From Escherichia phage saus132, in the sequence record NC_047884.1: a stretch of 64,000 nucleotides of DNA, one strand, 5' to 3'. Below the pieces are notes generated by a model. It did not search any database, had not been told where the DNA came from, and was given only the letters and a program-made list of their open reading frames with translations. Shown piece after piece: positions 15,415 to 57,498 of the stretch. The first letter of the stretch is position 1, and each line of letters opens with the position of its first letter. Made by a program: the position numbers and the translations under genes.

Positions 15415-15446
15415 TTGAACTTCCTCTCTCATTAATTTATAAATAT

Positions 15447-15475
15447 ATTATATAAGATTTCTGGACATTTAGCAA
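15447..15475 (-). promoter_or_regulatory. T5-type early promoter (-35 TTGCTA, 17-bp spacer, -10 TATAAT)
   Basis: minus-strand TATAAT at 15447-15452 and TTGCTA at 15470-15475, followed by the conserved AT-rich leader with GAGAGG RBS. Confidence 0.6.
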
Positions 15476-15480
15476 TTAAA

Positions 15481-16011
15481 TTATTTATTTAATTCTTCTA
15501 ATGCTGGAAGCAACCCGCGAAAGACTTCCTTAACTGCTAGCTCTCCGTGAAGCTCTTCTCTTAATGTATTAGCTGCTTCAACAGCTAAATTTAGATCTTG
15601 GTATCTAAAGTAGCCACCATGTACTGGAGTACTTTCAGAATTTCTGGCTTGGACTCTCCATTGCTGGCGATCTTTCTTCCAGCTAACCCCTAGATATCCA
15701 GAATTAGATTGTGCGACTTTATTACGATTATTTTCCTGAGATGTGGCATCCTTTAGATTACACCATCTGTTATCTTTTCTTATATTATTTAAGTGATGAA
15801 CTAAATCTGGAATATAACCTTCCATATACAGGAAGGCTAATCTATGGGCTGCATATCTTTTTCTGTTTATCCCGATAAATATATAGCCATCTTTATCGGG
15901 ACTGCCAGCGATAGTTCCAGCTTTGGCTCTACCCTTACTGACTTTCCTTATAAAGTCTCCTGTATCGGGATTATATTCAAATAGTTCTTTCAGTAGTTCT
16001 TGTGTTATCAT
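15481..16011 (-). CDS. HNH homing endonuclease
   Basis: 176 aa; N-terminal EYNPDTG motif and AHRLAFLYMEGY..HHLNN.R.DNR HNH-like core; one of four paralogs. Confidence 0.65.
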   Translation of the reverse strand: MITQELLKELFEYNPDTGDFIRKVSKGRAKAGTIAGSPDKDGYIFIGINRKRYAAHRLAFLYMEGYIPDLVHHLNNIRKDNRWCNLKDATSQENNRNKVAQSNSGYLGVSWKKDRQQWRVQARNSESTPVHGGYFRYQDLNLAVEAANTLREELHGELAVKEVFRGLLPALEELNK

Positions 16012-16443
16012 TTACCAATCGTTAACGAAACCTGAGAACTCCGAAGCAAATACTAACTCAAATTTCTCAGCAATTTCAGGATAATCCTTACAGATCAGTT
16101 CGATGCACTTCTCAGGTTCCATACCGTCTTCTTCAGGATCACCGTAATACTTATCCCAAAGATCATCAGGAATAACTTGCTCAGCTAGATCTTGGAAGTT
16201 CACTAACTGATAGCGTGGAGTATCCTCATTAATAAAGATCTCATGCAATTCCTCAGATACTTCTCCCTTATAATCGGAAATTAGCAGAGCATTGCAAGCA
16301 AAACATTCCCACATCATCAAACGCTCAGAAATAGGGTTCGATTTGTCTTGAACATAGGACTGAAAGACTGCCTTAAAAGTAGCTTTAACTTGCTCAAACT
16401 TATCAGCTGTTGCGATTAAGAGTGCTTTATCAATCTTTTGCAT
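16012..16443 (-). CDS. hypothetical acidic protein
   Basis: 143-aa ORF with promoter and RBS upstream. Confidence 0.5.
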   Translation of the reverse strand: MQKIDKALLIATADKFEQVKATFKAVFQSYVQDKSNPISERLMMWECFACNALLISDYKGEVSEELHEIFINEDTPRYQLVNFQDLAEQVIPDDLWDKYYGDPEEDGMEPEKCIELICKDYPEIAEKFELVFASEFSGFVNDW

Positions 16444-16473
16444 TTTGATTCCTTCTCATCAATTTATAAAGTA

Positions 16474-16502
16474 ATTATACAGAAAACTAAGCATTTTAGC
16501 AA
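16474..16502 (-). promoter_or_regulatory. T5-type early promoter
   Basis: TATAAT 16474-16479 and TTGCTA 16497-16502 on minus strand, 17-bp spacer. Confidence 0.55.
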
Positions 16503-16510
16503 ATGAAGTT

Positions 16511-16537
16511 TTAAAATAAAAGGCCTAAGCCTAGGCC
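16511..16537 (-). terminator. putative intrinsic terminator
   Basis: GGCCT..AGGCC hairpin with adjacent A/T run, downstream of the 16605 gene. Confidence 0.4.
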
Positions 16538-17955: not shown

Positions 17956-18818
17956 TATAGAATCCTCTGCTCACCACAGCTATCATTTTTATCTGTGGTA
18001 AATGTCATGATTTTACCGGCTTCATCATTAACTTGCGCAACCGTCAACTGCCCGTTGAAAACACCGCCAGTATCAAGATAAACACGGTTCTTATATAGAA
18101 TCGGGTAAGGAACACCAGTGTGGCCGTGGAATACGAAATCCACACTTTCAACTTCTGGTACTTCCACCGTCAATTCATCTTTAAAGCCTGTATAACGCTG
18201 GAAATAAGGATGTTCTGCACCTTGCTTAGATAGATGAAAACCAATTTCCTGAATTACATCACGATCCCACAAATATGGTTCAATATAATAACTAGGATGG
18301 TCATTAGGATCATTTTCACTTGCAGCGATATGATCAATAATATCATCCCAGTTAGGTGTATGTACATCGAATCCAGCATCTTTATACTGGAACGGTATTC
18401 CACCATGAACAACACCATATTTCTTGCCACGATGGAGTACGGTCATGAATACCGGCATTTTAGCAGCCATATCTTCTGCGATACCTTTAATTGTATCGGT
18501 ATCCAGATCATTCATTGCCCACATTCCACCATTATACATCCAGTTGGCATAGTCACCAGCAATCATAAACTGATCATGGTTGCCACGAACGCTACGGAAG
18601 CGTGGGTTATATAAGAATTTGGCTAGAACCTGTAAGTTCTGCGGGCCACGGTCAATTAGGTCGCCAACACAGACAACATAGTCACGCTTTTCTTTATATC
18701 CTGCTAGTTTAAGAGCATCTTCCAGCATATCATTACAGCCGTGAATATCTCCTACGAAGAACAGGTTAACATCGTCTGGTACTACTAACATTTCGTGCAG
18801 GTTAAATTCTTTTTTCAT
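17955..18818 (-). CDS. serine/threonine protein phosphatase (lambda-PPase-like)
   Basis: 287 aa; GDIHGC, GDLIDRG, GNHD and GHTG motifs. Confidence 0.7.
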   Translation of the reverse strand: MKKEFNLHEMLVVPDDVNLFFVGDIHGCNDMLEDALKLAGYKEKRDYVVCVGDLIDRGPQNLQVLAKFLYNPRFRSVRGNHDQFMIAGDYANWMYNGGMWAMNDLDTDTIKGIAEDMAAKMPVFMTVLHRGKKYGVVHGGIPFQYKDAGFDVHTPNWDDIIDHIAASENDPNDHPSYYIEPYLWDRDVIQEIGFHLSKQGAEHPYFQRYTGFKDELTVEVPEVESVDFVFHGHTGVPYPILYKNRVYLDTGGVFNGQLTVAQVNDEAGKIMTFTTDKNDSCGEQRIL

Positions 18819-18849
18819 TATCTGGTTCCTTTCTCAAGTTTATAGGTAT

Positions 18850-18878
18850 ATTATATCAAAAATTTTAGCAGAAAGCAA
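18850..18878 (-). promoter_or_regulatory. T5-type early promoter
   Basis: TATAAT 18850-18855, TTGCTT 18873-18878, 17-bp spacer. Confidence 0.55.
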
Positions 18879-18885
18879 CTGAATT

Positions 18886-19407
18886 TTAGGGCTGTTCTTC
18901 ATATTTCTCATACAAAGCAAATTCGCCAAATAATTCAAATCTCAATTCATTGGCTGCCTCCACAGCATCTTTCTTATGAATAAAAGTGCCACCATAAATA
19001 GACTTGCCATCTTTTTGTACTGTTACTTGCCATTTCCCCGTACTTTTATCCCAAGAAACATTTTTATAACCAGAAGTATTATCAGACCGTTTAGTAATAT
19101 TGGCTATATTTTGGGATTGTGTACAAGATCTGAGATTGTCATAAATATTGTTATCTCTAACCCTATCTTTGTGGTCTACCCGTTTTGGTAGGTATCCTTC
19201 CATGTATAAGATAGCCAATCTATGAGCTTGTTGGGCTTTACCATTTACTCGTATATAGATATATCCATTCTGCTTACTACCTGCTTTATTACCCGCATTT
19301 TTCTTATTCCACGCTAGGGATGCATCTGCCCTCTCTTTCCATGTGAACTCTCCAGTGAGAGGATTGTAATCAAGTATTGATTTAATATATTCTTGTGTTA
19401 ATTCCAT
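18886..19407 (-). CDS. HNH homing endonuclease
   Basis: 173 aa; paralog of the 15481 and 19750 ORFs. Confidence 0.65.
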   Translation of the reverse strand: MELTQEYIKSILDYNPLTGEFTWKERADASLAWNKKNAGNKAGSKQNGYIYIRVNGKAQQAHRLAILYMEGYLPKRVDHKDRVRDNNIYDNLRSCTQSQNIANITKRSDNTSGYKNVSWDKSTGKWQVTVQKDGKSIYGGTFIHKKDAVEAANELRFELFGEFALYEKYEEQP

Positions 19408-20277: not shown

Positions 20278-20681
20278 AATTTATTAACTGCCTCTAAAAA
20301 CGCACGCATCACTTTAACAGTTGCAGTGCTAAGATCTGCGGTAGCACCTAAGCACTCAGATACAGCAGCCTGATAAGGGGCTTTTAGCCTGCCTTCCGGT
20401 ACTTGTACTTTCTTATAGGTTTTCTTTTTGACTTTATCCAGCATCGTTTCAAGAACATTGAGAGGCAACTTCTGACCTTCAATATTCACGCCAAGCTCTT
20501 CCATTAGCATGGTATTTAAGTCAATACGAGTAAGTTTCTTGCCCTTGCTAGACATACGAATTCCCGCCTTTTTCTCAAGTTTTGCACGCTCTGGTGAATC
20601 GAGGTCACGTAATGCGATGTTCAATTCATACGGAGCCATATTGTAATGGTTAGCCATCTGAGTATAGTAACGATCTGACAT
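20274..20681 (-). CDS. hypothetical protein
   Basis: 135-aa ORF; GAGGAG RBS. Confidence 0.5.
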   Translation of the reverse strand: MSDRYYTQMANHYNMAPYELNIALRDLDSPERAKLEKKAGIRMSSKGKKLTRIDLNTMLMEELGVNIEGQKLPLNVLETMLDKVKKKTYKKVQVPEGRLKAPYQAAVSECLGATADLSTATVKVMRAFLEAVNKL

Positions 20682-20714
20682 TTGTGAAACTCCTCTGATT
20701 CAATTTATACAAAT

Positions 20715-20743
20715 ATTATATAAAAATTTCAGCGGAAAGTCAA
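20715..20743 (-). promoter_or_regulatory. T5-type early promoter
   Basis: TATAAT 20715-20720, TTGACT 20738-20743. Confidence 0.5.
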
Positions 20744-20751
20744 TTACTTTT

Positions 20752-21174
20752 TTATATTAGTGTGCTTGATGTGGGGAATCTCTTCCTAACTAAGTACATA
20801 GTTATTGGATATATTGAATACATAAGTATAGGGGAGAAAAGGGTGGAATAAGCCGTGACTCCCCCAGCTAACATTAGTGGTATCAATGCTAGAGTAAGGG
20901 CCATAAGAATCATACCGAATGTGACAGCCAGGGCTACTGTGATGCAGTTTTCTAACTCCATCCAAAGCCAACAATATTTCGTATTTCTCTGGCAGTTGCA
21001 TTTGCAAACGCCGAATGTGCCCATAATTATATACTCTAGCCCATGAACGACTTTCTTTAATGTATCATTTTGGGTAACTAGTGCGACAACAGTGAGAATT
21101 ATCATTAAGATGAAAACTACTAGACTTATTTTCCATACTCCTAGTAATATCATGGTGAATAGTTCTGCAAACAT
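20752..21174 (-). CDS. membrane protein
   Basis: 140 aa, several TM-like segments. Confidence 0.45.
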   Translation of the reverse strand: MFAELFTMILLGVWKISLVVFILMIILTVVALVTQNDTLKKVVHGLEYIIMGTFGVCKCNCQRNTKYCWLWMELENCITVALAVTFGMILMALTLALIPLMLAGGVTAYSTLFSPILMYSIYPITMYLVRKRFPTSSTLI

Positions 21175-24564: not shown

Positions 24565-25241
24565 CTTTTCATATTCCTGAATGACGTAACCGTATCAAAT
24601 CCATGTGCTGCTAGGCGGTCTTTATCAGAAATGGTAATAATATCTGGTTCTCCTGTTCCAAGCACGCCCCAGATATATTGTTCAATTCTCTGGTGTAATC
24701 GATATAGGTTGCTTTCAATTTCCTGCCACGGAATACCTGATAGGTGTAGACGCGGATTAGTTATAACCTTGAAGTATTTATTGTTATCTTTATCATTTGG
24801 AACTAATGAATCTAGAACTGCTAACGGTACTCTTAGCTCAGATAAGGCTTCTTTAGCTTTCGGGGTAACTTCATCTTGCCATGATAAGATAGACTCTTTT
24901 GGCTTCCCTCTATTTATATCTAGTAGAGAAAATCCCGTTGACCATCCATTCTCTTTCAAAACTTCTAATGCTTTGTCTAGGTTGAAAGTTTTTACTTGGG
25001 TATCCAATACATCAATATGGTACATCCAGTAAATCTCTCCTGCTAGGAAAAACGGTAGAATTTTAAAGTAGCCTTTCTTTTCACCAACACGAGCAATCAT
25101 ACGTTCTTGCATAATCATGTAGTTGCCATCATCTGGAGCCTTTATTATTAGCTCTTCAGTTTTACGCTCCCAAGCACGATCGGGGTCAAACAAGCTGTTC
25201 TGCAAATCATATACATCTGCCCATTTACTAATAATTCTCAT
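24561..25241 (-). CDS. hypothetical protein
   Basis: 226-aa ORF with promoter leader and RBS. Confidence 0.5.
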   Translation of the reverse strand: MRIISKWADVYDLQNSLFDPDRAWERKTEELIIKAPDDGNYMIMQERMIARVGEKKGYFKILPFFLAGEIYWMYHIDVLDTQVKTFNLDKALEVLKENGWSTGFSLLDINRGKPKESILSWQDEVTPKAKEALSELRVPLAVLDSLVPNDKDNNKYFKVITNPRLHLSGIPWQEIESNLYRLHQRIEQYIWGVLGTGEPDIITISDKDRLAAHGFDTVTSFRNMKR

Positions 25242-25393
25242 ATTTAATCCTCTTGCCTCAATCTATAAACATATTATATAATACTTGTGGCATCTGAGCA
25301 ACTGAAATTTTATTACAAAAAATAGCCCAGTCGCAAAATTGCAGGCTGGGCTTTGTCATTATTATTCTTGCTAGGAGGTGATTATCATCACTC

Positions 25394-27094: not shown

Positions 27095-27368
27095 CTTCAT
27101 CGTCCTCTTTACAGTCACGGCATACATCATAATCATTGAAAGAATGTTCGTGAGCTTCACACCACCAAGAACAAGAATCGCACAAGAAAATTTCTGTTTT
27201 CTCTATTGCCTGTCCAAGCAGTTCGTCTGCTTCATCTTCGGTGATTTTCAAACTACAAACATCAGCAACACGTTTAACAATCATTTTACCTGCTTCATGA
27301 TAAGACATACAAGTCCCAACAACATCATGCTCAAGTACGTGAACAGCACAGTCTAGGCGAGTTTTCAT
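27087..27368 (-). CDS. small Cys-rich protein
   Basis: 93 aa; CDSCSWWC and CRDC motifs; promoter leader upstream. Confidence 0.45.
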   Translation of the reverse strand: MKTRLDCAVHVLEHDVVGTCMSYHEAGKMIVKRVADVCSLKITEDEADELLGQAIEKTEIFLCDSCSWWCEAHEHSFNDYDVCRDCKEDDEDE

Positions 27369-27398
27369 TTCAAAGCCCTCTCATCAATTTATATAAAT

Positions 27399-27427
27399 AT
27401 TATATCAAAAGGAGAGGGTTTTAGCAA
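27399..27427 (-). promoter_or_regulatory. T5-type early promoter
   Basis: TATAAT 27399-27404, TTGCTA 27422-27427, 17-bp spacer. Confidence 0.55.
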
Positions 27428-27444
27428 ATGAATTATTTACGAAA

Positions 27445-29199: not shown

Positions 29200-29493
29200 T
29201 TACATCATTTCATCCAAGTAAGAAGTATACTGGTATTTAGCTTCCCCAGTTTTATCTACTTCGACTTCTGTTCTAGGTACTTTTCGTACCAGACCGTGAA
29301 TCATCTTGTACTGAATAGACTTAGATGGTTCGTGATCTTTTGGAAAGACTTGTTTAACCGTTACTACTTTGAAGCCTTCACGAGGTGTTAATACAACAAC
29401 TTGATCACCTTCTTTAATTTTCCAGGACTCAGGAAATTCATAAGTGTAGCGTTGACCACCAGTTTGGAACACGACAGAAAGATAACGTTTCAT
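29200..29493 (-). CDS. hypothetical protein
   Basis: 97-aa ORF; promoter leader with GAGAGGG RBS. Confidence 0.5.
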   Translation of the reverse strand: MKRYLSVVFQTGGQRYTYEFPESWKIKEGDQVVVLTPREGFKVVTVKQVFPKDHEPSKSIQYKMIHGLVRKVPRTEVEVDKTGEAKYQYTSYLDEMM

Positions 29494-29567
29494 TTGGTTT
29501 CCCTCTCATTAATTTATATAAATATTATAACAAGAAATAAGAGAGAAGGCAAATGAATTTTTAAATT

Positions 29568-32154: not shown

Positions 32155-32509
32155 AAAATCTTTAAGTTTACTAAGGCTATTAGCTCGGTGTGCGTATTAC
32201 CCTCAGACATTATCCAGTAGAGGATAACCGCTCTTCACAAACCCGATACACTATTCAGTTGCCGCTGAATCTAGTGGACTAATCTAGAACTTCTCCCGAG
32301 TCGTAGGGATCGTGCTTTTTGGCAGCCAGTCCTAGGTCGAGCTAATACCTTAGTGAACTAAATTGATGGATATCAGACTAATTTTGCTACGGCGTTTATC
32401 CTGAGGATCTCTTTTTCGGTAGCTCTGCTAGTGTAGACGTCATACACCTGATATCTAGGCAGCTATTTTCACATCAATTTATATAAATATTATAACAAGA
32501 AATTAAGCA

Positions 32510-38606: not shown

Positions 38607-38626
38607 AAATTTATGAATATATTATA

Positions 38627-39510: not shown

Positions 39511-39540
39511 ATTTGATTCCTCTCTCAAATTTATAAATAT

Positions 39541-39569
39541 ATTATACAGAAATTTTCTATATTAAGCAA
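39541..39569 (-). promoter_or_regulatory. T5-type early promoter
   Basis: TATAAT 39541-39546, TTGCTT 39564-39569, 17-bp spacer, conserved leader. Confidence 0.6.
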
Positions 39570-39616
39570 GTGAAAATTTCTGTATAATAGCCCTCTAAGC
39601 GAGGGCTATAACTACT

Positions 39617-40309: not shown

Positions 40310-41351
40310 CGTTAAAGTGATGAATCAGCCAGTCTACTGCGTTTACTGCTTCGTCCATACGAACTTTGTAGTCCGGGGAGTCGATGTAAACAGTACGCCC
40401 TTCAGGGAACTGATTTGGAAATTCTTTCTTCATCTGCTCGAACAGTTCAGAAGTAATTGAACGATCGGAGTTAATACGTAAACCATCATCTACCCACTTG
40501 ACAGTAGGCGCTAGAACAATTACTAAATCGTAATGTTCTTCTTTTGCAATTGCTGTAACCACAGGGTTCTTACTATGTTCATAAAGTCTGTGGTAGAACT
40601 CAGTAATAAAAGCATTTGTATCCACAAACATGATCTTATTTGCAGTACGTTCTGCTTCAAACTCTAGCTCTTTGTGTCTGAACGCAATTTTACTATAGTC
40701 TTCGCTGGTAAGCAGATTTTCGTTACCAACTAGATCAACTTCACAATACGTTCGGCCATATTCTTCTACCCACGAAGTGTTGTATAGCTTCGCAAGGTAT
40801 TTTGTTAAAGTAGTCTTTCCTGAGCTTTCAGTCCCAATGATTACAACCTTACGCACGTAATCTTTACGAACTACGCTAGGAAGAAACTCCCAATACTTCA
40901 TAAGATCATTACGAATCATTGTAGCTGAGATTGGAACACGAGTCCGATCAGAATCTACAATATAATGACCAAACTTCGGCAGATATTTCTTATATTCTGC
41001 ATCATAGTCTAGTTCGCTAGAGAAAATGGTGATCTCAGGCAAATGTCCGTAATTTTCATTAAGGATTCTAGCATATTCCGGCCAACCATTCGGATATTCA
41101 GGAATATCATCTTCAATAGTGTACTCTACCGAAATGTGCTCAATATCCGCGTAAGTTTGTTCTAACCAACGAAGTCGATTCTTTAACTGTAATACTTCCT
41201 GATCACGTGTGTTCTGCTTATCCAACCAACGATTATCATGACTAACTACAACAATAACTCGTTCACACATAGTTGCTGCTGTGTTTATTAGGTTAATATG
41301 ACCACGCGTTAATGGTGCGAACTTACCAATTACTAGACCAGTCTTAATCAT
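40296..41351 (-). CDS. nadR: NadR-like bifunctional NMN adenylyltransferase / ribosylnicotinamide kinase
   Basis: nucleotidyltransferase motif GKFAPLTRGH; Walker A GTESSGKTTL in C-terminal half; start set at ATG after GAGAGG RBS. Confidence 0.65.
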   Translation of the reverse strand: MIKTGLVIGKFAPLTRGHINLINTAATMCERVIVVVSHDNRWLDKQNTRDQEVLQLKNRLRWLEQTYADIEHISVEYTIEDDIPEYPNGWPEYARILNENYGHLPEITIFSSELDYDAEYKKYLPKFGHYIVDSDRTRVPISATMIRNDLMKYWEFLPSVVRKDYVRKVVIIGTESSGKTTLTKYLAKLYNTSWVEEYGRTYCEVDLVGNENLLTSEDYSKIAFRHKELEFEAERTANKIMFVDTNAFITEFYHRLYEHSKNPVVTAIAKEEHYDLVIVLAPTVKWVDDGLRINSDRSITSELFEQMKKEFPNQFPEGRTVYIDSPDYKVRMDEAVNAVDWLIHHFNVGEF

Positions 41352-41381
41352 ATTTGATTCCTCTCTCAAATTTATAAATAT

Positions 41382-41410
41382 ATTATACAGAGAATTTAGC
41401 ATTCAAGCAA
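41382..41410 (-). promoter_or_regulatory. T5-type early promoter
   Basis: TATAAT 41382-41387, TTGCTT 41405-41410, 17-bp spacer. Confidence 0.6.
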
Positions 41411-41623
41411 TCGAATTTTTTAACTTTTTAGTGGAAAAAATCTCAAGGCATTTAGTGGTAGCACGTTGTTGCTACAATAATAGTATATGATTCTAAAGAA
41501 TTAAAGAATTAAATACTAAAGACCTTAGTTGAATAACTTATGGGCTTTTCTTTTGCCTTAAATACAGAAAAGCCCGCGCTCTCGGAGGAAACGCGGGCTT
41601 ATTTCGAAGATTACGTGTAACTA

Positions 41624-42881: not shown

Positions 42882-43777
42882 TTTAGGTATTTTTAAGAAC
42901 TCTTATAAAAGCTCTTAAAGATACCCGACGGTAGGTAGGGTCAGCCCCCTCAGATTAAGCTCTGCAGCCCTTCCGTCAGACAATATCTTCCAGTTTAAGT
43001 CAGGGTGACTTTGTGGTTATGTTCTCCGTATGTGAAGAACTCGGTTAGGCTTAGGTCATGACTCCCAGCCTACTGCTGCCGCTCAACAGGAATTATCGCG
43101 AATTACCTGTACTATTGGGCACCATTAGTGACATCTCTCATGTCAGCGTTTCCCACTCTCATATTCACGCGGTCTGTTAGAATCGCACCTCCGATTTTCG
43201 ATGCGAAGCTGGATGCCTAGTCTCAGGTTAAACGGGGCACACACTAGGCAGTGATCCCGAGTTCCGAGTTTGGTTGAGGCCGTCAGGTTTCCTCGTGGTT
43301 TAGCTGTTTCGATTCTAACCTAATACTGATCAGGTGGCGTACCTCCTGAACTGTCATAGTATGTACTCCAGCAGCGAATGCTTATCCGGTATAAGCCCGA
43401 GTTATCTGATTCTTTCCGACCGCAGGATTCGAACCTGCATCTTCCACCAGTTACGGTTTGATATTACCGTTTATACTAGGACGGCAGTGTTATCACATAA
43501 GTCAGTTCGACACCCCACTAACATAAACTAGAGAAGAGTTTACGAGATTTCGGGACAGCTCCCGAGTTTTCCGCAGATTTTCAGTTCCCTATCAATAGCA
43601 ATAAGCGTTAGCTCGTAGCCTCTCTCAGAGTACTTACTAGTCTCCAACTCACCGACTCTATTCAGTGGAATAGCTATCCTAGTAGGAATCACTAAACTCA
43701 CTCAGCGTAATCGGCTCGCTGTTCTCTAATTTATGAATCTATTATACAGAATTTTGAGGCGTTTAGCAAATCAATTT

Positions 43778-44221
43778 TTAATTAAATTCGCCAGCAACCT
43801 GAGCAGCAATGCCACCGTCGTAACGACCAGGAAACTCTTCCTTAATCGCTTTCATCAGCATACCTTTTGTAATCCCAGGGTTCAACTTAACTAATTCTGC
43901 AAAGTATTTGCGAATCTCAGAATCAGATAACTGAGGCGGCAGATACTGTTGTAGCCATTTGTTCAGTATATACTCATACTGAGCAGACTGCAAGCTATAA
44001 TTATCAAGGTCTTGACCGTGAAGTTTAGCTTTCGTCTGATTAATGCTTTTCAGTTGAGCTTTTAGATAAGATACAAACTGTTCAGAAGTAATGAAGTCTT
44101 TATCAACACGCTGAAGATCTCCGATTATGGTCTGGTAGCTTTTAGCTACTTCTTTATCAGAACCATCAACCTTAGATTCCTGCAAAGCCCTACGCAAAAC
44201 ATCTAGAATATTCTCTTCCAT
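43778..44221 (-). CDS. GatB/YqeY-domain-like protein
   Basis: 147 aa; C-terminal MKAIKEEFPGRYDGGIAAQV resembles YqeY tail. Confidence 0.4.
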   Translation of the reverse strand: MEENILDVLRRALQESKVDGSDKEVAKSYQTIIGDLQRVDKDFITSEQFVSYLKAQLKSINQTKAKLHGQDLDNYSLQSAQYEYILNKWLQQYLPPQLSDSEIRKYFAELVKLNPGITKGMLMKAIKEEFPGRYDGGIAAQVAGEFN

Positions 44222-44391
44222 TATTTAATTCCCAGTGCTTGGTTAAAAGATTGTTCTGTCATAACTGCCGAGACTTTAGCGAAATCAAACTTCTTAGGGT
44301 TTGTAGTAATTTCAGCAACGTTAGTAGTTTTAACTGTTTTCGTAGTACGGATACCACGAGTATTAACACCAATAATTACAACTGATTTCAT
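44221..44391 (-). CDS. hypothetical small protein (56 aa)
   Basis: ATG ORF; TAATG overlap with downstream gene. Confidence 0.3.
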   Translation of the reverse strand: MKSVVIIGVNTRGIRTTKTVKTTNVAEITTNPKKFDFAKVSAVMTEQSFNQALGIK

Positions 44392-44459
44392 ATTTCGCTT
44401 CCTCTCATTAATTTATGAAAGTATTATACAGAAATTTAAGGCTTTAAGCAATCGAATTT

Positions 44460-44909
44460 TTAAGTTTTCTTAACCACAGGCTTGTAGAATGTATGGCCTT
44501 GAATCTTCGTTGTTTTCTTAAACTTCTTTGTCCAGTACGGTTTATCTTTACCACTATGGAAGTATAACGCTCCATGTGTTGGATCTTGTGGTAAATCAAC
44601 GTAGTATATCACTCTAGCTAAATTCTTAGCAACTTGCCAAGCCTCATCGGTTTTATCAACTTTTGGTCTCCTGGCCACCCAAGAGAACTGGTTAGACTGA
44701 TATACTACTTTACAGTAAGAATCAGGAAAAGTACCAGAGTTAACACGGTTTTTAGTAACCTGTGCAACTGCGATCATTCCTTTAGTGCCCTCACCTCGTG
44801 CTTCGAAGTAGATATTTTTTGCAATGCAATCAATCTGCTTTGAGTCGTAGGTCGCATGACTATTGAAGCTATAGGTTAGGGCAGCTATTAAAAGCAAAGC
44901 TGCCTTCAT
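44460..44909 (-). CDS. cell-wall hydrolase (SleB/Hydrolase_2-like) with signal peptide
   Basis: NIYFEARGE...GMIAVAQVTKNRV motif; start set to ATG after GGAG RBS. Confidence 0.5.
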   Translation of the reverse strand: MKAALLLIAALTYSFNSHATYDSKQIDCIAKNIYFEARGEGTKGMIAVAQVTKNRVNSGTFPDSYCKVVYQSNQFSWVARRPKVDKTDEAWQVAKNLARVIYYVDLPQDPTHGALYFHSGKDKPYWTKKFKKTTKIQGHTFYKPVVKKT

Positions 44910-44914
44910 TTTAT

Positions 44915-45232
44915 TTACTCCGGCCAATCGTACTCAATACGATTAGGGCTTTCTTGATACCCTTCGTCTAAGAGATCATTACGCATGGTCTCTTTAGCTA
45001 CTGGGTTCGAGGTTACTAGTACCACTTTCTTGGGTCTCTGACCAAATTCTAGGAGTAAACGAAGAATTTGATAACCTTCCATACCATCTACAGCCAGATC
45101 GTTATCCATATAAACGAAATGACCTGTGGTATCGGTTTTATTCAGAAACTCAACAGCGGCTTCGGGGGTTCGAATGATAATGTCCATTCCATGAAGGTTA
45201 CGCACATCATCAATCAGAATATGAAAAATCAT
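44915..45232 (-). CDS. hypothetical protein
   Basis: 105-aa ORF. Confidence 0.45.
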   Translation of the reverse strand: MIFHILIDDVRNLHGMDIIIRTPEAAVEFLNKTDTTGHFVYMDNDLAVDGMEGYQILRLLLEFGQRPKKVVLVTSNPVAKETMRNDLLDEGYQESPNRIEYDWPE

Positions 45233-45675
45233 AATAGCCTCGTCTCATCAATTTAAAAATATATTATACAGAAAACTAAACTAATTAGCAAATACATTTT
45301 TAAATTGAGAGACTAGTAAACCGATAAACAGCCTAGAGGCGCCACAGGCCATATCTTATGAGCCATGTACCTTTGATCTAGGGTTTGAATCATCAACGAA
45401 TACTTTGCATCTTTTAGCTTTAGAAGGTTAGAAGTTTGAGTGCTTTTAACTTTTCAGCTTTCATACTTGAGCGTTGATCTTTGAAGTTGTGTTGGTACTA
45501 CCAACGACCTTTTGTTTTTACGTGTCAGATTAAATGTCTGATGTAATAAACATAATCTCCAATAGATTATACTTTATAGTATGGTCAGCGGTCTTATTTA
45601 ACCTCGTATTTCAACCGCTGCTGCGAGGTAAGATGCTTGGGCTTTCGTCTACCGATTTACTAGTCTTTTAAATTA

Positions 45676-46367: not shown

Positions 46368-46550
46368 TTACAGACCGATTGCCAGCAGAGTGCGCAGAAC
46401 AGTATCAGAACTGTTATCAATATTCGGATTAGCGCGATTCAGCACGTTAAAGATTTTCTGGATGCCGGACTGACGCTCAGCCATACGACGCAGACCCAGG
46501 TTACGTTTTGCTACTTTACCATTTTTACGGACGTTTTTAGATACTGGCAT
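46368..46550 (-). CDS. hypothetical small basic protein
   Basis: 60-aa ORF. Confidence 0.35.
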   Translation of the reverse strand: MPVSKNVRKNGKVAKRNLGLRRMAERQSGIQKIFNVLNRANPNIDNSSDTVLRTLLAIGL

Positions 46551-46620
46551 AATTATTTTCCTTTTGTTGTTCTCTCAAATTTATGAATATATTATACAGA
46601 ATTTTGGAGCTGAAAGCAAA

Positions 46621-47322
46621 TCAAATTTTGATTTTTTCGATCATGATGGCTACACAATAACTTTCAACTAAAGCATCGAATGCTGGATCATGCTTCACGG
46701 GATAGATTCCATAACGAATGGTGTCCATCTTTTCCATTTTAGCTTTTGCCCAGCTAGCACCTTCGGCTTCTAGATCTTTATAACTATAACCAGCTTGCAT
46801 CCACTGATTACGGAAAGATCGAACGTTACCTAAGTTCCAGAATTTCCACGGAACTATTTCTTCATGGGTTCCGGCATGGAACGTATTTGCAGAGTAGATA
46901 GTCATATCAAACTCTGGGCCATTGCCGTAATACAGAGCATTATCTCCTAGAGACAATTCCATAATGTTCTGAGCCATAGAGAAGGCAGCGTAATTAGAAC
47001 CTACATCATTAGTGCAGTGATGCTTACCATCACGGAAGGCAATCAGTTTCGGATTGCGATTAGTCAATGCTTCTACTATATGGCAAGCTGAAGTACTCAG
47101 TCTAGCTTGTTCCATCCAGAATGCAATAGTAGAGGCAGTTACCTTAGCACCCGCATTAAGCTGATCCTGAACGTCTAGAGTAACGAAAACCAGATCAGGA
47201 TCTTTATCAATTCCGTGCATCGCTACAAAAGCGAAAGAAGGCATTGCGATATGAGTAGTACCGCAATTTCCTGGAGTACCTAGAGATTCAATGTCCAGCA
47301 TACCAAAGGGCTTGAATTTCAT
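46621..47322 (-). CDS. exonuclease (DexA-like)
   Basis: 233 aa; LDIESLG and KFWNLGNVR motifs resemble T4 DexA. Confidence 0.4.
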   Translation of the reverse strand: MKFKPFGMLDIESLGTPGNCGTTHIAMPSFAFVAMHGIDKDPDLVFVTLDVQDQLNAGAKVTASTIAFWMEQARLSTSACHIVEALTNRNPKLIAFRDGKHHCTNDVGSNYAAFSMAQNIMELSLGDNALYYGNGPEFDMTIYSANTFHAGTHEEIVPWKFWNLGNVRSFRNQWMQAGYSYKDLEAEGASWAKAKMEKMDTIRYGIYPVKHDPAFDALVESYCVAIMIEKIKI

Positions 47323-47883: not shown

Positions 47884-48399
47884 TTACTTCGCTTTACGCT
47901 TACGAGCAGGTTTAGCGGATTTACGATCAGAAGCACCAGTAAACTTAATACCGATACCATAGCACAGAGCGCGAACGTTGTCACGGCTGTACTCTACACC
48001 GAAGATATTCGGTTTAACGGAGCCAAACTGTCCACGCGATTCACGCATTACGTCAGCCATTGGCTTACGCTTCTGATTGACTGCTTTTTCGTAGTCTTTC
48101 AGAGCCATACCGTTGCGGGCGAACATTTCAGCACCGCCGTTAAAGCTCAGAGTTACCGGTACAGACTTATGACCTTCACCCTTGATGAACACAACCTGCT
48201 TAGCAGTTGCGCGAGTAGAGTTCTTGGCCTTCGGCTTCTGGCGAACCGGAGCCGGAGACTTCAGGGCAGTCTGAGCCTGAGCATCAGTAGGATGCTTACG
48301 CAGATGACGTTCCAGACGAGCCTTACGATTGGCTTCGGTCTGAGCGAAAGTTTTAACTGCCGGAGCTGCCTGAGTTTTTGCGTTTTTCTGCTTAGCCAT
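47884..48399 (-). CDS. basic Lys/Ala-rich protein (putative nucleic-acid binding), GC-rich gene
   Basis: 171 aa with K/R/A-rich termini; elevated GC. Confidence 0.5.
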   Translation of the reverse strand: MAKQKNAKTQAAPAVKTFAQTEANRKARLERHLRKHPTDAQAQTALKSPAPVRQKPKAKNSTRATAKQVVFIKGEGHKSVPVTLSFNGGAEMFARNGMALKDYEKAVNQKRKPMADVMRESRGQFGSVKPNIFGVEYSRDNVRALCYGIGIKFTGASDRKSAKPARKRKAK

Positions 48400-48482
48400 T
48401 ATTTGTTTTCCTTTTTGTTGATCAATTTATGAGATATATTATACGAAATTTTGAAGCGTTTAGCAAATGAATTTTTTAAAAA

Positions 48483-48761
48483 TTATCTGCCAATCATCTT
48501 AGCTTGTTCCTCACTGGAAACGTACTGATAACCACCCTTGTTATACGCAGGAGCAGTACACAGTTTCTTGCGCTCAATTTCTTCTTGAGCTTTGCGTTCC
48601 CTTTCGGCTAATTCTTCGTCTAGGTAAACTAGACGTTGCTCCGGAGGTGGTGGAAGCCTAGTTTCTGGCTCACCAATATTTGCCTTTCTGATCTGACGCG
48701 GAGGTTGTGCGCGTTTTCTCAAAGGTTTAAATCCTAATGAATTTGAGTTGTAAATTCGCAT
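48483..48761 (-). CDS. hypothetical protein
   Basis: 92-aa ORF. Confidence 0.4.
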   Translation of the reverse strand: MRIYNSNSLGFKPLRKRAQPPRQIRKANIGEPETRLPPPPEQRLVYLDEELAERERKAQEEIERKKLCTAPAYNKGGYQYVSSEEQAKMIGR

Positions 48762-48837
48762 AAAGCCCTCCTCACTTTCAATACGAATATTATACTAAAT
48801 TCGAGGGCTTTAAGCAAGTGAATTTTTAATTTATTTA

Positions 48838-49585: not shown

Positions 49586-50164
49586 TTATTCTCCAATTAC
49601 TAAAACATCATGTTGAGAAGATACACCACACATATAATCTGCACAATGCGTAAAAGCCAGATCAATGATTTCAAATATATCATCTACATCTAAATCTGTG
49701 GCTCGACAATCCGCAATAGCTAAACCTGTACGAATACTGGAAAGTACATCTTCTCCTCCACAGCCTACACCGGCATATTCAACTTCTAGGATAGAAGCAT
49801 TAGATTGGAAAATAAAGATTCTTCCTTTGTAGAGCATAATAAATTGTCCCAGATTAGGTTCAGCATATTTTTCATTTTTCTTTTCGCCAAAATCTTTCTG
49901 GTTAAACATATCACGTAATTTAGGTACTATTTCCGTATATAAATATTTATCATCGGAAATATCTGCTAAACGTGGTGGTATAGTAAAGCTATGCTCTAGT
50001 AATTGTCCCATGTAGAAGGAACTAGTGTATCCGAAGTACAAATCATCGGAGATTTTGAATACTTTCGGATTTTTAACCAGCAGTTTCGTATAGCCATTAG
50101 AACCCATACGATCACCAGCTAAGTATACTTTATCTTTATATTTAAATGCTACTATGGCTGTCAT
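49586..50164 (-). CDS. HslV/proteasome-like Ntn-hydrolase
   Basis: N-terminal MTAIVAFKYKDKVYLAGD resembles HslV MTTIVSVRRNGHVVIAGD; GVGCGGED. Confidence 0.4.
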   Translation of the reverse strand: MTAIVAFKYKDKVYLAGDRMGSNGYTKLLVKNPKVFKISDDLYFGYTSSFYMGQLLEHSFTIPPRLADISDDKYLYTEIVPKLRDMFNQKDFGEKKNEKYAEPNLGQFIMLYKGRIFIFQSNASILEVEYAGVGCGGEDVLSSIRTGLAIADCRATDLDVDDIFEIIDLAFTHCADYMCGVSSQHDVLVIGE

Positions 50165-50262
50165 TATTAAATCCTTCTGTCAAATTAGAAGTATATTATA
50201 TTTGAATTTCACTAAGTAAGCAAATGAAATTTAAATATAATAGCCCCGAAGGGCTATTTGAA

Positions 50263-52001: not shown

Positions 52002-53146
52002 TAGAACATACCCTCAAATTCGTTGCCAAGATCTTTCAGAGTATCCATAGATGTTTCTGTGACTTGACCTACACGATATGCTGCGCCAATCTGAATCTCT
52101 TGCGGAGCAGGTTGTAAAGATGTAGTATCCAACCAGTTCATGATCCACGGAATAGGGTTCTTAGTAATTACAGGTAAGTGGCTTGGCCATTCTACACCAA
52201 TGTGCATAAATGCGTTACGTCCTACAAAGTAAAGGTATTCTTCAAGCAGTTCTGCGTTCAAACCAATCAGACTACGGCCTTTAAAGATAAAGTGACCCCA
52301 TTCAATCTCAGTTTTCAGAGTTTTTAGGAGTTGTGTTGGTGCTTTAGCTAATGCTTCATCTACCAGATCTTTATCAAATTGCTGAAACATAATCTGGATG
52401 ATAGCTTTAGACATTTGAGTATGTAGAGCTTCATCTTTAGCGATTAATTGCAGGTTCTTAGCAATACCTTGCAGAATATCGTTCTCTGCTAGAGCAAAGG
52501 TACATGCAAAGGATGCGTAGAACTGCATTGCTTCCAGACCGTAGATTGCAAAGTAAGCATCTAACAGCTTAGCCTGAGTTTCACGTTTAACTTCAGGGAA
52601 CTCAGTTTCTGGATAAGTATTATCACCACGATGATCACGTACTGCAAGGAAATACTGACCTAACAGATACAATTCATCAAACAGTTCAACAGAATCTGCG
52701 ATACGTGCAAATGCTTCTTGGTTTTTAGTTACAGAATCAATAAATTCTGCTGGATCAGTCAGAACGTTACGAATAATATTACTATACGCACGGCTGTGCA
52801 GATCTTCGAAGTAGCTCCACTGCTTGAGCATACCCTCCAATTCAGGACGGCTTACAAGCGGCATAATAGCTGCTTCAGGAGCACGGCTAATGAAAGAATC
52901 TGTTTGGGTCTGCCATGCTAAGTTCAGGAGAGTAATTTCCTGAATATCACGCGGAAGGTTTGGCCATTGTTTCTTATCGGCTTCCAGACTGATTTCAGTT
53001 TCAGTCCAAAATTGAGAACGTTGCAGAAGTGCTAGACGCTCAAGTTCAGGATGTGCTACACGAACGTAATCTGCGATACCAAGAGAATCGCCCAGGAAAA
53101 GGTCAGCGTTAGTATGATCCCAATTCAGGTTTAGTAAAGTAGTCAT
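52001..53146 (-). CDS. nrdB: ribonucleotide reductase small subunit
   Basis: 381 aa; di-iron helix motifs; overlapping stop/start with frd. Confidence 0.8.
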   Translation of the reverse strand: MTTLLNLNWDHTNADLFLGDSLGIADYVRVAHPELERLALLQRSQFWTETEISLEADKKQWPNLPRDIQEITLLNLAWQTQTDSFISRAPEAAIMPLVSRPELEGMLKQWSYFEDLHSRAYSNIIRNVLTDPAEFIDSVTKNQEAFARIADSVELFDELYLLGQYFLAVRDHRGDNTYPETEFPEVKRETQAKLLDAYFAIYGLEAMQFYASFACTFALAENDILQGIAKNLQLIAKDEALHTQMSKAIIQIMFQQFDKDLVDEALAKAPTQLLKTLKTEIEWGHFIFKGRSLIGLNAELLEEYLYFVGRNAFMHIGVEWPSHLPVITKNPIPWIMNWLDTTSLQPAPQEIQIGAAYRVGQVTETSMDTLKDLGNEFEGMF

Positions 53147-53212
53147 TGATTTTCCTCTTTCTCACTATTTCAGGAATATTATAGCAAATCTGGTAGCGAT
53201 TAGCAAGTAAAA

Positions 53213-53695
53213 TTATAAACTATCAAGCTCCAATAGTTTAGCATCGCGCCATTCTATAGCATCCTCTAATTCTTTAAATGTTTTAGTATGTTTTACACCT
53301 TTCCTAGCTATTTGGACTTGATAAGATCCACTTGCTTTTTGGTGTATATTTTTAATACCTAACTTATTGTCCTTATGTGCTCCAACGTTCTTTCCATTAC
53401 TAAATCTGTTAGAGGCTAGTAAATTAATTGCTCTATTATCATGACGTATTCTATTATCATGATCTACTTCTTTTGGGATGTACCCATGCGTAATATAGAA
53501 TGCTAGGATATGTGCGTAGTATTTTGTACCTCTTACCTGCATTACTATGTATCCTGAGCATTTTTCCAAAGAGCCTGCCTCTTTGCCTGCAAACTTAGTA
53601 TTAAATGATTTATCTTCTCTAGGTTTGTGGGTAAAGATTCCGGTTTCTGGATTATAGTCAAATAACTCAGCTATTTCTTTGTATTTTTCTTCCAT
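53213..53695 (-). CDS. HNH homing endonuclease between nrdA and nrdB
   Basis: 160 aa; EYNPETG and AHILAFYITHGY..DHDNRIRHDNR motifs. Confidence 0.6.
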   Translation of the reverse strand: MEEKYKEIAELFDYNPETGIFTHKPREDKSFNTKFAGKEAGSLEKCSGYIVMQVRGTKYYAHILAFYITHGYIPKEVDHDNRIRHDNRAINLLASNRFSNGKNVGAHKDNKLGIKNIHQKASGSYQVQIARKGVKHTKTFKELEDAIEWRDAKLLELDSL

Positions 53696-53745: not shown

Positions 53746-53750
53746 ATTTA

Positions 53751-56084: not shown

Positions 56085-56207
56085 TGCGGTTTCCTTTTTA
56101 TAGTTCTCAGGATTTAGATAGTATTCTACTTTGTTTTGAGTCATTATGCAAGTACAATTTTTCAGATAAAAAGAGCCCGGATATTTTCATACCCAGGCTC
56201 GTCTGTC

Positions 56208-56450
56208 TTACCATTTAAGTTTATCGGCTTGATCAAGTAACTGCTGTTGTATTTCTCGGTTAAAGAGAATATCTACAGAAGTACTTAGTTCATTATAGTT
56301 GAAAGGCCGATTTGGATTAGAGGCTACAATTTTCCACGCTAGGGTAGTCTTAGGACTTTCTTCTCCTTCCTTACGTGTAATCATATTAGCAGCACTCAAT
56401 GAAGTACGGTGGATCTTAGTTTTGCGGTGCAGATGTACGACGTTTCCCAT
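56208..56450 (-). CDS. hypothetical protein
   Basis: 80-aa ORF between phoH and nrdA. Confidence 0.4.
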   Translation of the reverse strand: MGNVVHLHRKTKIHRTSLSAANMITRKEGEESPKTTLAWKIVASNPNRPFNYNELSTSVDILFNREIQQQLLDQADKLKW

Positions 56451-56451
56451 A

Positions 56452-57204
56452 TTACACCTTCCCCATATCCTTAAAGATATCGTAGAATGCTTTAGACTCT
56501 GGTGAGCGAACGTTGTCGATCAGTTCGATCATAGAGAAAGGAGAGTTTTCGTACTTCTCATAGACTTCCATAAGAAGTGCTAGACCTGAATCACCCTTGA
56601 TGTCTTTCTGAGCTATATCTCCACAGATAATTAGACGACAATCTTGTCCGACACGAGTCAAGAGACAGATCATTGCTTCAACGGAGATATTCTGAGCTTC
56701 ATCGACAATTACATAGGAGTTGTTGAAAGTTCGGCCACGGGCATGTTCGATAGCCAGGAATTTGATTTTCTGACGTTCGACATATCCTTTGTAGGCGTGA
56801 TCACCGATTGCCCATTTCATGCCATCGGCTATTGGTTCCAACCAAGGCTCTAGCTTTTCTGCTAGATCACCTGGGAGCATACCAAGAGATTTACCTAGAG
56901 GTTCGTTCGGACGCACGAGGATCACTTGCTCAATATCTGAGTGAATGTCTACGAGTTCCTGAGCTGCAAGAACGGACGGAATAAAGGTTTTACCAGTACC
57001 TGGTTCACCGATACCCACAGTCACTGTGTTGTTCTTGATCATATTGATATATGATTTTTGCTCACGGTTTTTACCAACTAGGGATTTAGCAACTGGATTG
57101 GCGTAATCACCAGAGAAATCTGCTTGAATTACGTTACTCTCATACTTGTTGCCACGCTTTCTTGAACCATTGCGGTTCTCTCTTTTTTGACGTGCTTTTC
57201 CCAT
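56452..57204 (-). CDS. phoH: PhoH-like ATPase
   Basis: Walker A GEPGTGKTF; start set at ATG after AGGAG RBS (track start is GTG at 57213). Confidence 0.75.
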   Translation of the reverse strand: MGKARQKRENRNGSRKRGNKYESNVIQADFSGDYANPVAKSLVGKNREQKSYINMIKNNTVTVGIGEPGTGKTFIPSVLAAQELVDIHSDIEQVILVRPNEPLGKSLGMLPGDLAEKLEPWLEPIADGMKWAIGDHAYKGYVERQKIKFLAIEHARGRTFNNSYVIVDEAQNISVEAMICLLTRVGQDCRLIICGDIAQKDIKGDSGLALLMEVYEKYENSPFSMIELIDNVRSPESKAFYDIFKDMGKV

Positions 57205-57277
57205 AAATAACACTCCTATAGTGTACTTCGCTAACAGAGGATCAACAAAAAGATCTTGTTTATCAACTTACAAATAT

Positions 57278-57306
57278 ATTATACCAATATATGCGGGAGA
57301 AAGCAA
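57278..57306 (-). promoter_or_regulatory. T5-type early promoter for phoH
   Basis: TATAAT 57278-57283, TTGCTT 57301-57306, 17-bp spacer. Confidence 0.5.
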
Positions 57307-57498
57307 CTACAATTTTAAATAAGCCTATGATATTGCATTTAAATAAAAAATTTGCTTGCTTTTATTGGGAGATGTATGGTACTAGATAATCATTTTATAT
57401 CGCGTACACGGGCGCGTGATTATACTATTTTTAATAGAGGTTGGCAAATAAAATTTTTTGACTCAGATCATGTTACAGAACTTTATAGTAAAATATTG

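Follow-up and report, generated by a model that had tools for sequence, protein, structure and literature searches.

Putative T5-type early promoter units recur along the early region of Escherichia phage saus132

The window analyzed here is a stretch of 64,000 nucleotides of the genome of Escherichia phage saus132 (NC_047884.1), in which a promoter-like unit, TTGCTW and TATAAT hexamers followed by a conserved leader, recurs ahead of the early genes. Coordinates beyond the window are those of record MF431736.1 ("Bacteriophage T5-like chee130_1", Epseptimavirus, Demerecviridae; 121,986 bp), of which the window represents bases 1-64000; when a 10-kb probe from the window was compared with five T5-like phage records, MF431736.1 included, it matched with 100% identity and at the same coordinates. 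The window opens with the left terminal repeat carrying the pre-early genes (1-8717), continues with a long leftward block of early genes and about 28 tRNAs, and reaches the first of the rightward early replication genes at about 57.5 kb. The G+C content of the genome is 39%. The annotation of MF431736.1 lists none of the approximately 28 early promoters of the window described below. The repeated unit is nevertheless already known: it is the classical strong T5 early promoter, well studied and ordinary. Mapping of T5 promoters goes back to 1978 and their sequencing to 1985, according to references cited in PMC7472727, and host sigma-70 polymerase serves all three T5 gene classes (PMC7472727). 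In what follows, the sequence anatomy, motif statistics, orthology to T5 elements, restriction to the early region and position-specific conservation were obtained in this analysis, whereas the sigma-70 dependence, the +1 position and the role of the initial transcribed sequence (ITS) are drawn from the T5 literature.

The signature TTGCTW-N17-TATAAT, with at most 1 mismatch, has 27 matches in the window against 2.16 expected, and 0 of 100 shuffled sequences reached 27. A position weight matrix (PWM) of 99 nt built from 23 aligned minus-strand copies contains 58.5 bits of information, divided among the hexamers (17.7 bits), the region upstream of the -35 (13.9), the spacer (8.2) and the 40 nt after the -10 (18.8). 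Scanning the window with this matrix yielded 26 sites scoring 24-79 bits, compared with a maximum of 1.5 bits in shuffled sequence. Two more copies lie outside the PWM list, namely 37214, with an 18-bp spacer, and 59473, on the plus strand (units are named here by the first base of the -35 hexamer). The full units thus number 25 on the minus strand (15447-57306) and 3 on the plus strand (59473, 60215 and 63635). The original prediction, made from the letters of the window, had described more than 25 near-identical units between 15440 and 57310 and a single plus-strand copy at 63634. Its minus-strand range agrees with ours, the first motif being located at 15447-15475 and the last at 57278-57306, and the plus-strand copy is real, its -35 starting at 63635, but it is accompanied by those at 59473 and 60215. 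The copies are not near-identical. Over 79 nt, their pairwise identity averages 55% and peaks at 76% (26% for random pairs), and the longest exact runs shared between units are 44 nt, in one pair, followed by 28, 23 and 21 nt, all others being shorter than 20 nt. The units form a consensus family instead. An Rfam scan of the whole window for known leader or small RNA families returned only tRNAs.

Positions within the unit are numbered with the -10 hexamer at -12 to -7. Since TATAATAGATTCAT is given as the N25 sequence from -12 to +2 (Klimuk 2020, PMC7472727), +1 was set at the 7th base after the -10. The 30 nt before the -35, which hold the 13.9 bits mentioned above, contain the consensus TnAAAAATTCA at -47 to -37. 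It is followed by TTGCTW at -35 to -30, a variable spacer that often ends in TTCTG or YTTGN, and TATAAT; the spacer is 17 bp long in 24 of the 25 minus-strand units and 18 bp in the remaining one. In the same 25 units, TG occupies -15/-14 (TGn) in 8 cases, abuts the hexamer at -14/-13 in 9 and is found at neither place in 8. The discriminator is A/T-rich and usually free of G (ATATTT, ATATTC, ATTTAT, ATATCT or ATACTT), with a G in 5/25 units. The exact ATATT is present in 8/25, the remainder being close A/T-rich variants; ATATT occurs in the discriminator of all known T5 early promoters and sets these apart from late ones (Klimuk 2020, PMC7472727). From +1 onward, the ITS consensus reads ATAAATT(G/A)A(T)GAGAGG, with ATAAATT at +1 to +7 in most units. 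The ITS is poor in C, which accounts for 5.9% of positions +1 to +20 across 27 units against a background of 18%, the minimum of 2,000 random sets being 12.8%. The units are collected in Table 1.

Table 1. Predicted early promoter units in the window
Feature	Coordinates	Strand	Promoter and start signals	Remarks
Early promoter unit	15412..15490	-	-35 15475-15470, -10 15452-15447, predicted +1 15440, ATG 15414	Heads operon down to ~9548; T5P8 orthologue
Early promoter unit	16441..16517	-	-35 from 16502, +1 16467, ATG 16443	Terminator hairpin 16538-16521 directly before; T5P9 orthologue
Early promoter unit	18816..18893	-	-35 from 18878, +1 18843, ATG 18818	Before Ser/Thr phosphatase gene; T5P10 region
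Early promoter unit	20679..20758	-	-35 TTGACT from 20743, +1 20708, ATG 20681	T5P11 orthologue
Early promoter unit	25239..25316	-	-35 TTGCTC from 25301, +1 25266, ATG 25241	T5P13 orthologue
Early promoter unit	27366..27442	-	-35 from 27427, +1 27392, ATG 27368	TGn extended -10; T5P14 orthologue
Early promoter unit	29491..29567	-	-35 TTGCCT from 29552, +1 29517, ATG 29493	T5P16 orthologue
Early promoter unit, no ribosome-binding site (RBS)	32471..32532	-	-35 from 32517, +1 32482	Towards tRNA-Ala genes; T5 'repeat b copy 3' site
Early promoter unit	34020..34098	-	-35 from 34083, +1 34048, GTG 34022	T5P17 orthologue
Early promoter unit	36008..36082	-	-35 from 36067, +1 36032, ATG 36010	T5P18 orthologue
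Early promoter unit, no RBS	36797..36858	-	-35 from 36843, +1 36808	Before tRNA-Tyr/Glu/Trp/Phe cluster; T5P19 orthologue
Early promoter unit, 18-bp spacer	37153..37229	-	-35 from 37214, +1 37178, ATG 37155	T5P20 region
Early promoter unit, no RBS	38603..38664	-	-35 TTGCCA from 38649, +1 38614	8 nt before tRNA-Ser; STWB21 indel partner
Early promoter unit	39143..39220	-	-35 from 39205, +1 ~39170, ATG 39145	Before Rad-like TOPRIM gene; other STWB21 indel partner
Early promoter unit	39508..39584	-	-35 from 39569, +1 39534, ATG 39510	44-nt exact block in common with 41410
Early promoter unit	41349..41425	-	-35 from 41410, +1 41375, ATG 41351	Before NadR-PnuC
Early promoter unit, no RBS	43723..43784	-	-35 from 43769, +1 43734	Followed by ~850 nt unannotated
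Early promoter unit	44389..44466	-	-35 from 44451, +1 44416, ATG 44391	T5P22 orthologue
Early promoter unit	45230..45306	-	-35 from 45291, +1 45256, ATG 45232	T5P23 orthologue
Early promoter unit	46548..46634	-	-35 from 46619, +1 46584, ATG 46550	34-nt leader, RBS farther downstream; T5 'repeat c copy 4' site
Early promoter unit	48397..48481	-	-35 from 48466, +1 48431, ATG 48399	T5P25 orthologue
Early promoter unit	48759..48832	-	-35 from 48817, +1 48782, ATG 48761	T5P26 orthologue
Early promoter unit	50162..50238	-	-35 from 50223, +1 50188, ATG 50164	
Early promoter unit	53144..53221	-	-35 from 53206, +1 53171, ATG 53146	Before nrdB-frd-thy; T5P28 orthologue
Early promoter unit	57260..57321	-	-35 from 57306, +1 57271	67-nt leader to PhoH-like gene (ATG 57204); T5P30 orthologue
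Promoter half of split unit	59458..59521	+	-35 from 59473, -10 59496-59501	Would drive inserted GIY-YIG-like gene, atypical 11-nt leader; upstream half of T5P31
Unit with weakened -10 TATTAT	60200..60273	+	-35 from 60215, +1 60250, ATG 60271	Keeps ancestral T5P31 ITS and leader
Early promoter unit, no RBS nearby	63620..63681	+	-35 TTGCAG from 63635, -10 63658-63663, +1 63670	T5P32 orthologue

The pQE expression vectors use PN25 as their T5 promoter, and promoter escape has been studied on it as a model. The PN25 70-mer matches T5 AY543070 at 63048-63117 with 100% identity, and that interval is annotated "promoter". The T5 record AY587007 carries 70-bp features labeled "putative early promoter" (T5P8 ... 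T5P34) across the homologous region, and short "repeat a/b/c" copies are annotated inside these features. Flank mapping of every T5 unit onto the window identified more than 20 of its units as positional orthologues of T5 elements. A PWM scan of the whole genome located units at 15.4-57.3 kb on the minus strand, at 60.2-80.2 kb on the plus strand, where the PN25 orthologue lies at 67175, and at 111978. The same scan found the terminal repeat and the structural-gene block (86-111 kb) free of units, and nothing above 13 bits in the late region. This distribution fits what has been described as the early region in T5 and BF23 (PMC10644984). In IMG/VR, the core signature was found in at least 120 stretches, and among the matches listed nearly all came from contigs 104-128 kb long, a length typical of T5-like genomes.

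To follow conservation position by position, we used 83 distinct orthologous unit sequences from other phages, located through their flanks only, so that the sequence of the unit itself could not bias the selection. Mismatch rates among these orthologues were lowest in the -10 (0.002), the -35 (0.010) and +1 to +12 (0.012), intermediate in the SD (Shine-Dalgarno) region (0.049), the A-tract (0.070) and the discriminator (0.074), and highest farther upstream (0.127) and in the spacer (0.156). A set of instances selected with the PWM, and hence biased, gave the same picture. The functional positions are thus fixed while the spacer is free, which argues for promoter function as what maintains the units. 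The family-wide data, with +1 to +12 as invariant as the hexamers and a C-poor ITS in about 27 copies, extend measurements made on a single promoter to the whole class.

Every testable defining feature of the T5 early promoter class is present in the saus132 units. They share with T5 early promoters (Gentz & Bujard 1985, as cited in PMC7472727) the TTGCTW hexamer, the 17-bp spacing, TATAAT, the upstream A-tract, an ATATT-type discriminator and a C-poor ITS of the ATAAATTTGAGAGAGG type, as well as their genome positions, the region of their temporal class and, going by the T5 literature, the use of host sigma-70 polymerase. They differ in belonging to an Epseptimavirus rather than to the Tequintavirus T5, with about 83% DNA identity, and in the gain, loss or splitting of a few units: a NadR-PnuC cassette not present in T5 lies between 39569 and 41410, and T5P31 corresponds to a split pair, 59473 and 60215. 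Judged by their sequence, the repeated units are very probably early-class promoters of a T5-like phage, read by host sigma-70 polymerase. The earlier description of them as a promoter plus leader appears sound, given the T5-annotated positional orthologues, the kinship with PN25, the confinement to the early region and the conservation of -35, -10 and +1 to +12. Some points weigh against this reading. We infer the firing of each copy in vivo in saus132 from sequence and from T5; in T5, primer extension gave in vivo products from 11 of the 19 in vitro promoters tested (Klimuk 2020, PMC7472727). Certain copies deviate and may be weak, namely 60215 (TATTAT), 63635 (TTGCAG), and 48817 and 53206, in which the ITS is divergent. 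Finally, a scan with a generic sigma-70 consensus showed no enrichment (50 matches against 55.9 expected, and 52 against 53.7), so that the argument rests on the T5-specific signature.

An alternative is that the units are mainly portable recombination cassettes, similar to the PeSLs of T4-type phages, with promoter activity being secondary; the original prediction, too, had considered the reiterated unit a likely recombination substrate. There is a precedent in PeSLs (promoter-early stem-loop cassettes), as set out by Arbiol et al. 2010 (PMC2839356) and Comeau et al. 2014 (PMC4122927). To locate mosaic breakpoints, the window was aligned to the early regions of T5, GRNsp8, S147, LVR16A and NBEco002, which gave 119 unique breakpoints between 15.1 and 53.8 kb. 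Zones around units contained 18 of the 119, an excess over the 7.2% expected under a uniform distribution (p=0.002). However, with the five comparators, breakpoints were found at 14 of 24 gene junctions with a unit and at 53 of 83 without one, showing no preference (Fisher p=0.77). We therefore rejected the units as preferred breakpoints, the excess existing over the uniform null only and not over other gene junctions: breakpoints fall at gene boundaries in general. Many of those adjacent to units represent insertions of the homing-endonuclease type just upstream, at 15481-16011 (HNH), 18886-19407 and 53213-53695 (the latter two annotated as homing endonucleases).

The pair of units with the longest exact run (44 nt), 41410 and 39569, allowed a specific deletion junction to be predicted. 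This hybrid (174 nt) was found at full length, with 96.6% identity, in E. coli phage AZ21, and STWB21 and HMD-P2 contain near-complete matches to it. The AZ21 alignment runs from the upstream side of unit 41410 through the shared block into the sequence downstream of 39569, which places a 1,841-bp segment comprising NadR-PnuC plus a unit in register between two copies. Mapping of flanks across all fetched loci, covering 447 unit instances, identified 5 hybrids, corresponding to three events, of which this one was found by targeted search and the other two emerged from the mapping without having been designed for. In STWB21, a unit combines the upstream flank of 39205 with the downstream flank of 38649, switching within the 13-nt TATAATATATTC, and 556 bp with the Rad-like gene are missing. 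At 59473 and 60215, T5 (with T5P31) and three IMG/VR loci possess a single unit, as seen by alignment for T5 and two of the loci and by flank mapping only for the third; the 742-bp segment between the two saus132 units carries a gene for a zinc-finger/CapR/T5orf172 protein, and the switch is located in the spacer/-10 region. Crossovers thus appear to have taken place in the units at least three times, irrespective of whether the cassettes were gained or lost, although the units are not the dominant source of mosaicism. Other candidates were rejected. No single-piece match was found for the predicted hybrid of 32517 and 29552, which share a 28-nt repeat, the two halves being about 400 nt apart in KKP_3831; and the 2.37-kb deletion in NBEco002 is not a unit-to-unit event, since it joins the T-tail of a terminator to the spacer of a unit through a 10-nt microhomology.

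As those two papers describe them, PeSLs are reiterated, strong, sigma-70-like early promoters among non-essential genes, which is paralleled here, and some indels between close relatives start and end in two copies, to which the three events above may be counterparts. Excised mini-circles are a further trait of PeSLs. Unlike PeSLs, described there as composites of promoter and terminator, most saus132 units have no adjoining stem-loop terminator, and breakpoints at the units are not enriched over other junctions. Our terminator scan placed a hairpin directly upstream of one unit only, 16502; the hairpin at 41600-41570 is 160 nt from unit 41410, and by the criteria of the tool there was none beside the remaining units. 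By eye, hairpins lacking a T-run can be seen upstream of 39569, 50223, 59473 and 63635. A PeSL-style composite of terminator and promoter was accordingly rejected, a terminator being found beside very few units.

We consider it unlikely that recombination is the principal role of the units. The three in-register indels and the excess over the uniform null speak for it, but the hybrids amount to only 5 of 447 instances, most pairs of units share fewer than 20 identical bases, with a mean identity of 55%, and most other indels consist of homing-endonuclease genes adjoining units; moreover, homology maintained for recombination would not yield conserved promoter positions separated by a free spacer. 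Of the earlier claim of a recombination substrate, what holds is that three indels between related phages have both ends in register inside two units, whereas breakpoints are no more frequent at units than at other junctions. A dual role is easier to entertain. By analogy with PeSLs, the promoter-ITS units of Demerecviridae might act both as promoters and as portable homology, with cassettes gained or lost by crossover in the -10/discriminator/ITS block, a proposal that we regard as tentative, with the odds somewhat against it. In all three cases, which concern NadR-PnuC (NAD salvage), the Rad-like retron inhibitor and the GIY-YIG-like mobile gene, the junctions lie inside this block, and two of the three events fall in the mobile anti-defence island of the BF23 paper (PMC10644984). 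They suggest that promoters may be the sites at which T5-like phages exchange accessory and anti-defence genes, as PeSLs are in T4-like phages; if so, each incoming gene would arrive wired to a strong early promoter. In the literature that we searched, we found nothing relevant on promoter-mediated recombination or cassette exchange in T5-like phages. The possibly new part of this work is therefore modest, namely three clean gene cassettes in register between two promoter copies.

A different reading concerns the block after the -10, which would be mainly a translation signal, an A/U-rich enhancer combined with a Shine-Dalgarno sequence. The original prediction had likewise assigned this block to a recurring RBS, TTGAGAGAGG. 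This exact sequence is present in only two units and, with at most 1 mismatch, has 7 matches against 4.1 expected, which is not significant, so that it was rejected as a marker of the family; the general form is the ITS consensus given above, of which only the GAGG part is an RBS. The leaders of protein-coding genes do look like translation signals: the 5' end of the transcript would be A/U-rich, a GAGG-type SD lies 5-9 nt ahead of the start codon in units that precede proteins, and 18 units place the start codon 21-27 nt from +1, the median being 24 nt when every unit that precedes a coding gene is included. However, five units (32517, 36843, 38649, 43769 and 63635) have neither an RBS nor a start codon within 90 nt and face tRNA clusters or untranslated stretches, yet retain ATAAATT at +1 and, over +1 to +9, the same block without an SD. 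In units 46619 and 48466, the RBS is displaced farther downstream while the ITS has not moved. In the orthologues, the mismatch rate at +1 to +12 is about a quarter of that in the SD region, and the effect of the N25 ITS was measured as RNA synthesis in vitro (PMC12464699). A primarily translational role for the block is thus quite improbable. Because the units without an RBS keep ATAAATT in the absence of GAGG, the block immediately after the -10 is the discriminator plus ITS rather than an RBS, and the unit is a promoter with an optional RBS, not an indivisible promoter-RBS cassette.

The original prediction also held that some open reading frame (ORF) starts lie within the leader and that the true starts are farther downstream, which is borne out for four genes. 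The longest ORF begins within the unit at 15432, 37173, 39528 and 41402, the true starts being 15414, 37155 and 39510, six codons downstream in each case, and 41351; the start at 41402 would fall in the promoter spacer, upstream of +1. The downstream starts are those already used in the GenBank record. Taken together, the practical value of the units lies in annotation: the structure of early operons, the true starts of at least 4 genes and tRNA clusters with a promoter of their own.

How the units would work can be pictured from T5. After second-step DNA entry, each copy would be recognized by host sigma-70 polymerase, which would bind tightly through the UP-like A-tract, the good -35 and the perfect TATAAT. 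In near-consensus sigma-70 promoters with an UP element, of the rrnB P1 type studied by Estrem and Gourse, the proximal UP subsite has the consensus AAAAAARNR at -46 to -38. The A-tract of the units, at about -45 to -41 and centered near -43, occupies the same position and would contact the alpha subunit of the polymerase. rrnB P1 has a G/C-rich discriminator and forms short-lived open complexes. By contrast, the discriminator of the T5 units is A/T-rich, and N25 is limited at escape rather than by complex stability (PMC12464699); work cited in PMC7472727 indicates that the discriminator matters for open-complex behavior through sigma region 1.2. The units also resemble extended -10 promoters in the TG at -15/-14 of 8/25 minus-strand copies, but differ in that all have a near-consensus -35, so that TGn would not be compensating and is not a defining part of the architecture. 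Transcription is predicted to begin at the A seven bases past the -10, and the conserved C-poor ITS, ATAAATTRA(T)GA, would offset tight binding by fast escape. The N25 promoter is escape-limited, its native ITS speeds escape, replacement of +3 to +20 lowers full-length RNA about 10-fold, and the first C of its transcript does not occur before +30 (PMC12464699). Where a protein gene follows, a short GAGG SD leader would be added, for a total of about 24 nt. With about 25 such copies, the leftward early region would be divided into short operons, each strongly expressed.

The discriminator, which is unlike that of late promoters, is the proposed target through which gpT5.026 would lower early transcription. 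This protein binds the beta subunit of the polymerase and weakens the contact between polymerase and discriminator, and its loss raises early transcripts (PMC7472727). One could accordingly view the discriminator plus ITS as an operator for a phage-encoded regulator of the early class instead of an intrinsic property of promoter-polymerase interaction. ATATT is confined to early promoters, the polymerase binds a -12/+2 N25 oligonucleotide about 8-fold more weakly in the presence of gpT5.026, early transcripts are over-produced in the gene-026 mutant (PMC7472727), and +1 to +12 is as invariant as the hexamers, all of which would suit an operator. Nevertheless, gpT5.026 binds the beta subunit, not DNA, with an in vitro effect of two-fold or less (PMC7472727); the N25 and ITS effects were reproduced with host holoenzyme alone (PMC12464699); and the conserved block has no operator-like dyad symmetry or repeat structure. 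An operator is, on this evidence, a very unlikely explanation, and we favor signals read directly by the host polymerase. That the matches are a by-product of A/T-rich intergenic composition without common function, as the low G+C content and the near-shuffled yield of the loose sigma-70 scan might suggest, is refuted by the shuffled controls (27 against 2.2 expected; PWM scores far above the shuffled peak), by the restriction of units to particular strands and regions and by the position-specific conservation in orthologues, and has practically no chance of being correct.

Several observations concern units and promoter-like sites outside the main series. The full early-type unit at MF431736.1 111978 (plus strand) precedes a small gene, 112036-112302, beside the gene for the receptor-binding protein; llp, an early lipoprotein gene, presumably occupies the matching position in T5. 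In the late region, the weak site at MF431736.1 95243 (minus strand) is followed by TTAAGAGGAGAAATTAACTATGAGA, which we take to resemble RBSII of the pQE vectors. At 57419-57447 (minus strand), in the intergenic region between the divergent PhoH-like gene and nrdD, there is a match to the hexamers only (TTGCCA, 17 bp, TATAAT), without a T5-type discriminator or ITS.

The units also point to ORFs missing from the annotation of MF431736.1, namely two HNH genes and one DUF3307 gene beside units. All three are on the minus strand: 15481-16011 encodes an HNH_3 endonuclease, 16605-17072 a NUMOD4+HNH_3 endonuclease and 50263-50616 a DUF3307 protein. None of the five comparator phages has the first, which lies exactly upstream of unit 15475; the last is absent from T5, LVR16A and NBEco002 and lies exactly upstream of unit 50223. 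The coding sequence (CDS) 32510-32863 ends with a stop codon that falls within the -35 hexamer of unit 32517; T5 does not have this gene, the breakpoints being 32539 and 32888.

Two of the genes in the exchanged cassettes deserve description. The TOPRIM gene after unit 39205 is a homologue of T5 ORF071, reported as Rad, an inhibitor of retron defence. In saus132 its codon 11 is a stop, with TAA at 39115-39113 (minus strand) in place of the TTA of GRNsp8; a frameshift was considered and rejected, the lesion being a nonsense substitution. What remains is a 10-aa mini-ORF, MTVDELKQHL (39113-39145), and a 133-aa ORF (38627-39028) with the Toprim domain. The gene at 59519-60205 (plus strand) sits inside what is one promoter unit in T5 and other phages. 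It encodes a 228-aa protein with a treble-clef zinc finger (DUF4379) and CapR and MUG113/T5orf172 (GIY-YIG-like) domains, and is probably a mobile nuclease gene.

Some units face stretches with little or no coding content. Unit 43769, among the strongest (69 bits), is followed by about 850 nt without an annotated gene (42882-43734, minus strand); a marginal tRNA-like Rfam match is present at 43414-43485 (29.3 bits, gathering score 29), and a pseudo-tRNA is annotated at the matching place in T5. Between the predicted +1 of unit 38649 and the 5' end of tRNA-Ser there are only 8 nt (38606-38614, minus strand), which would leave the tRNA precursor with hardly any leader. After unit 63635, about 490 nt lack an ORF, up to the large replication gene at 64160, and a second promoter-like site (TTGATT, 18 bp, TACAAT) is found near 63696-63725; T5 shares this long gap, which there separates T5P32 from the gene for the origin-binding protein. 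At the other end of the window, immediately beyond the terminal repeat, which ends at 8717, and in a stretch without an annotated gene, direct repeats of the form AATGTGCAAATCCGAC..TAA.TT are found at 9010-9033 and 9045-9068, with a weaker copy at 10830-10853.

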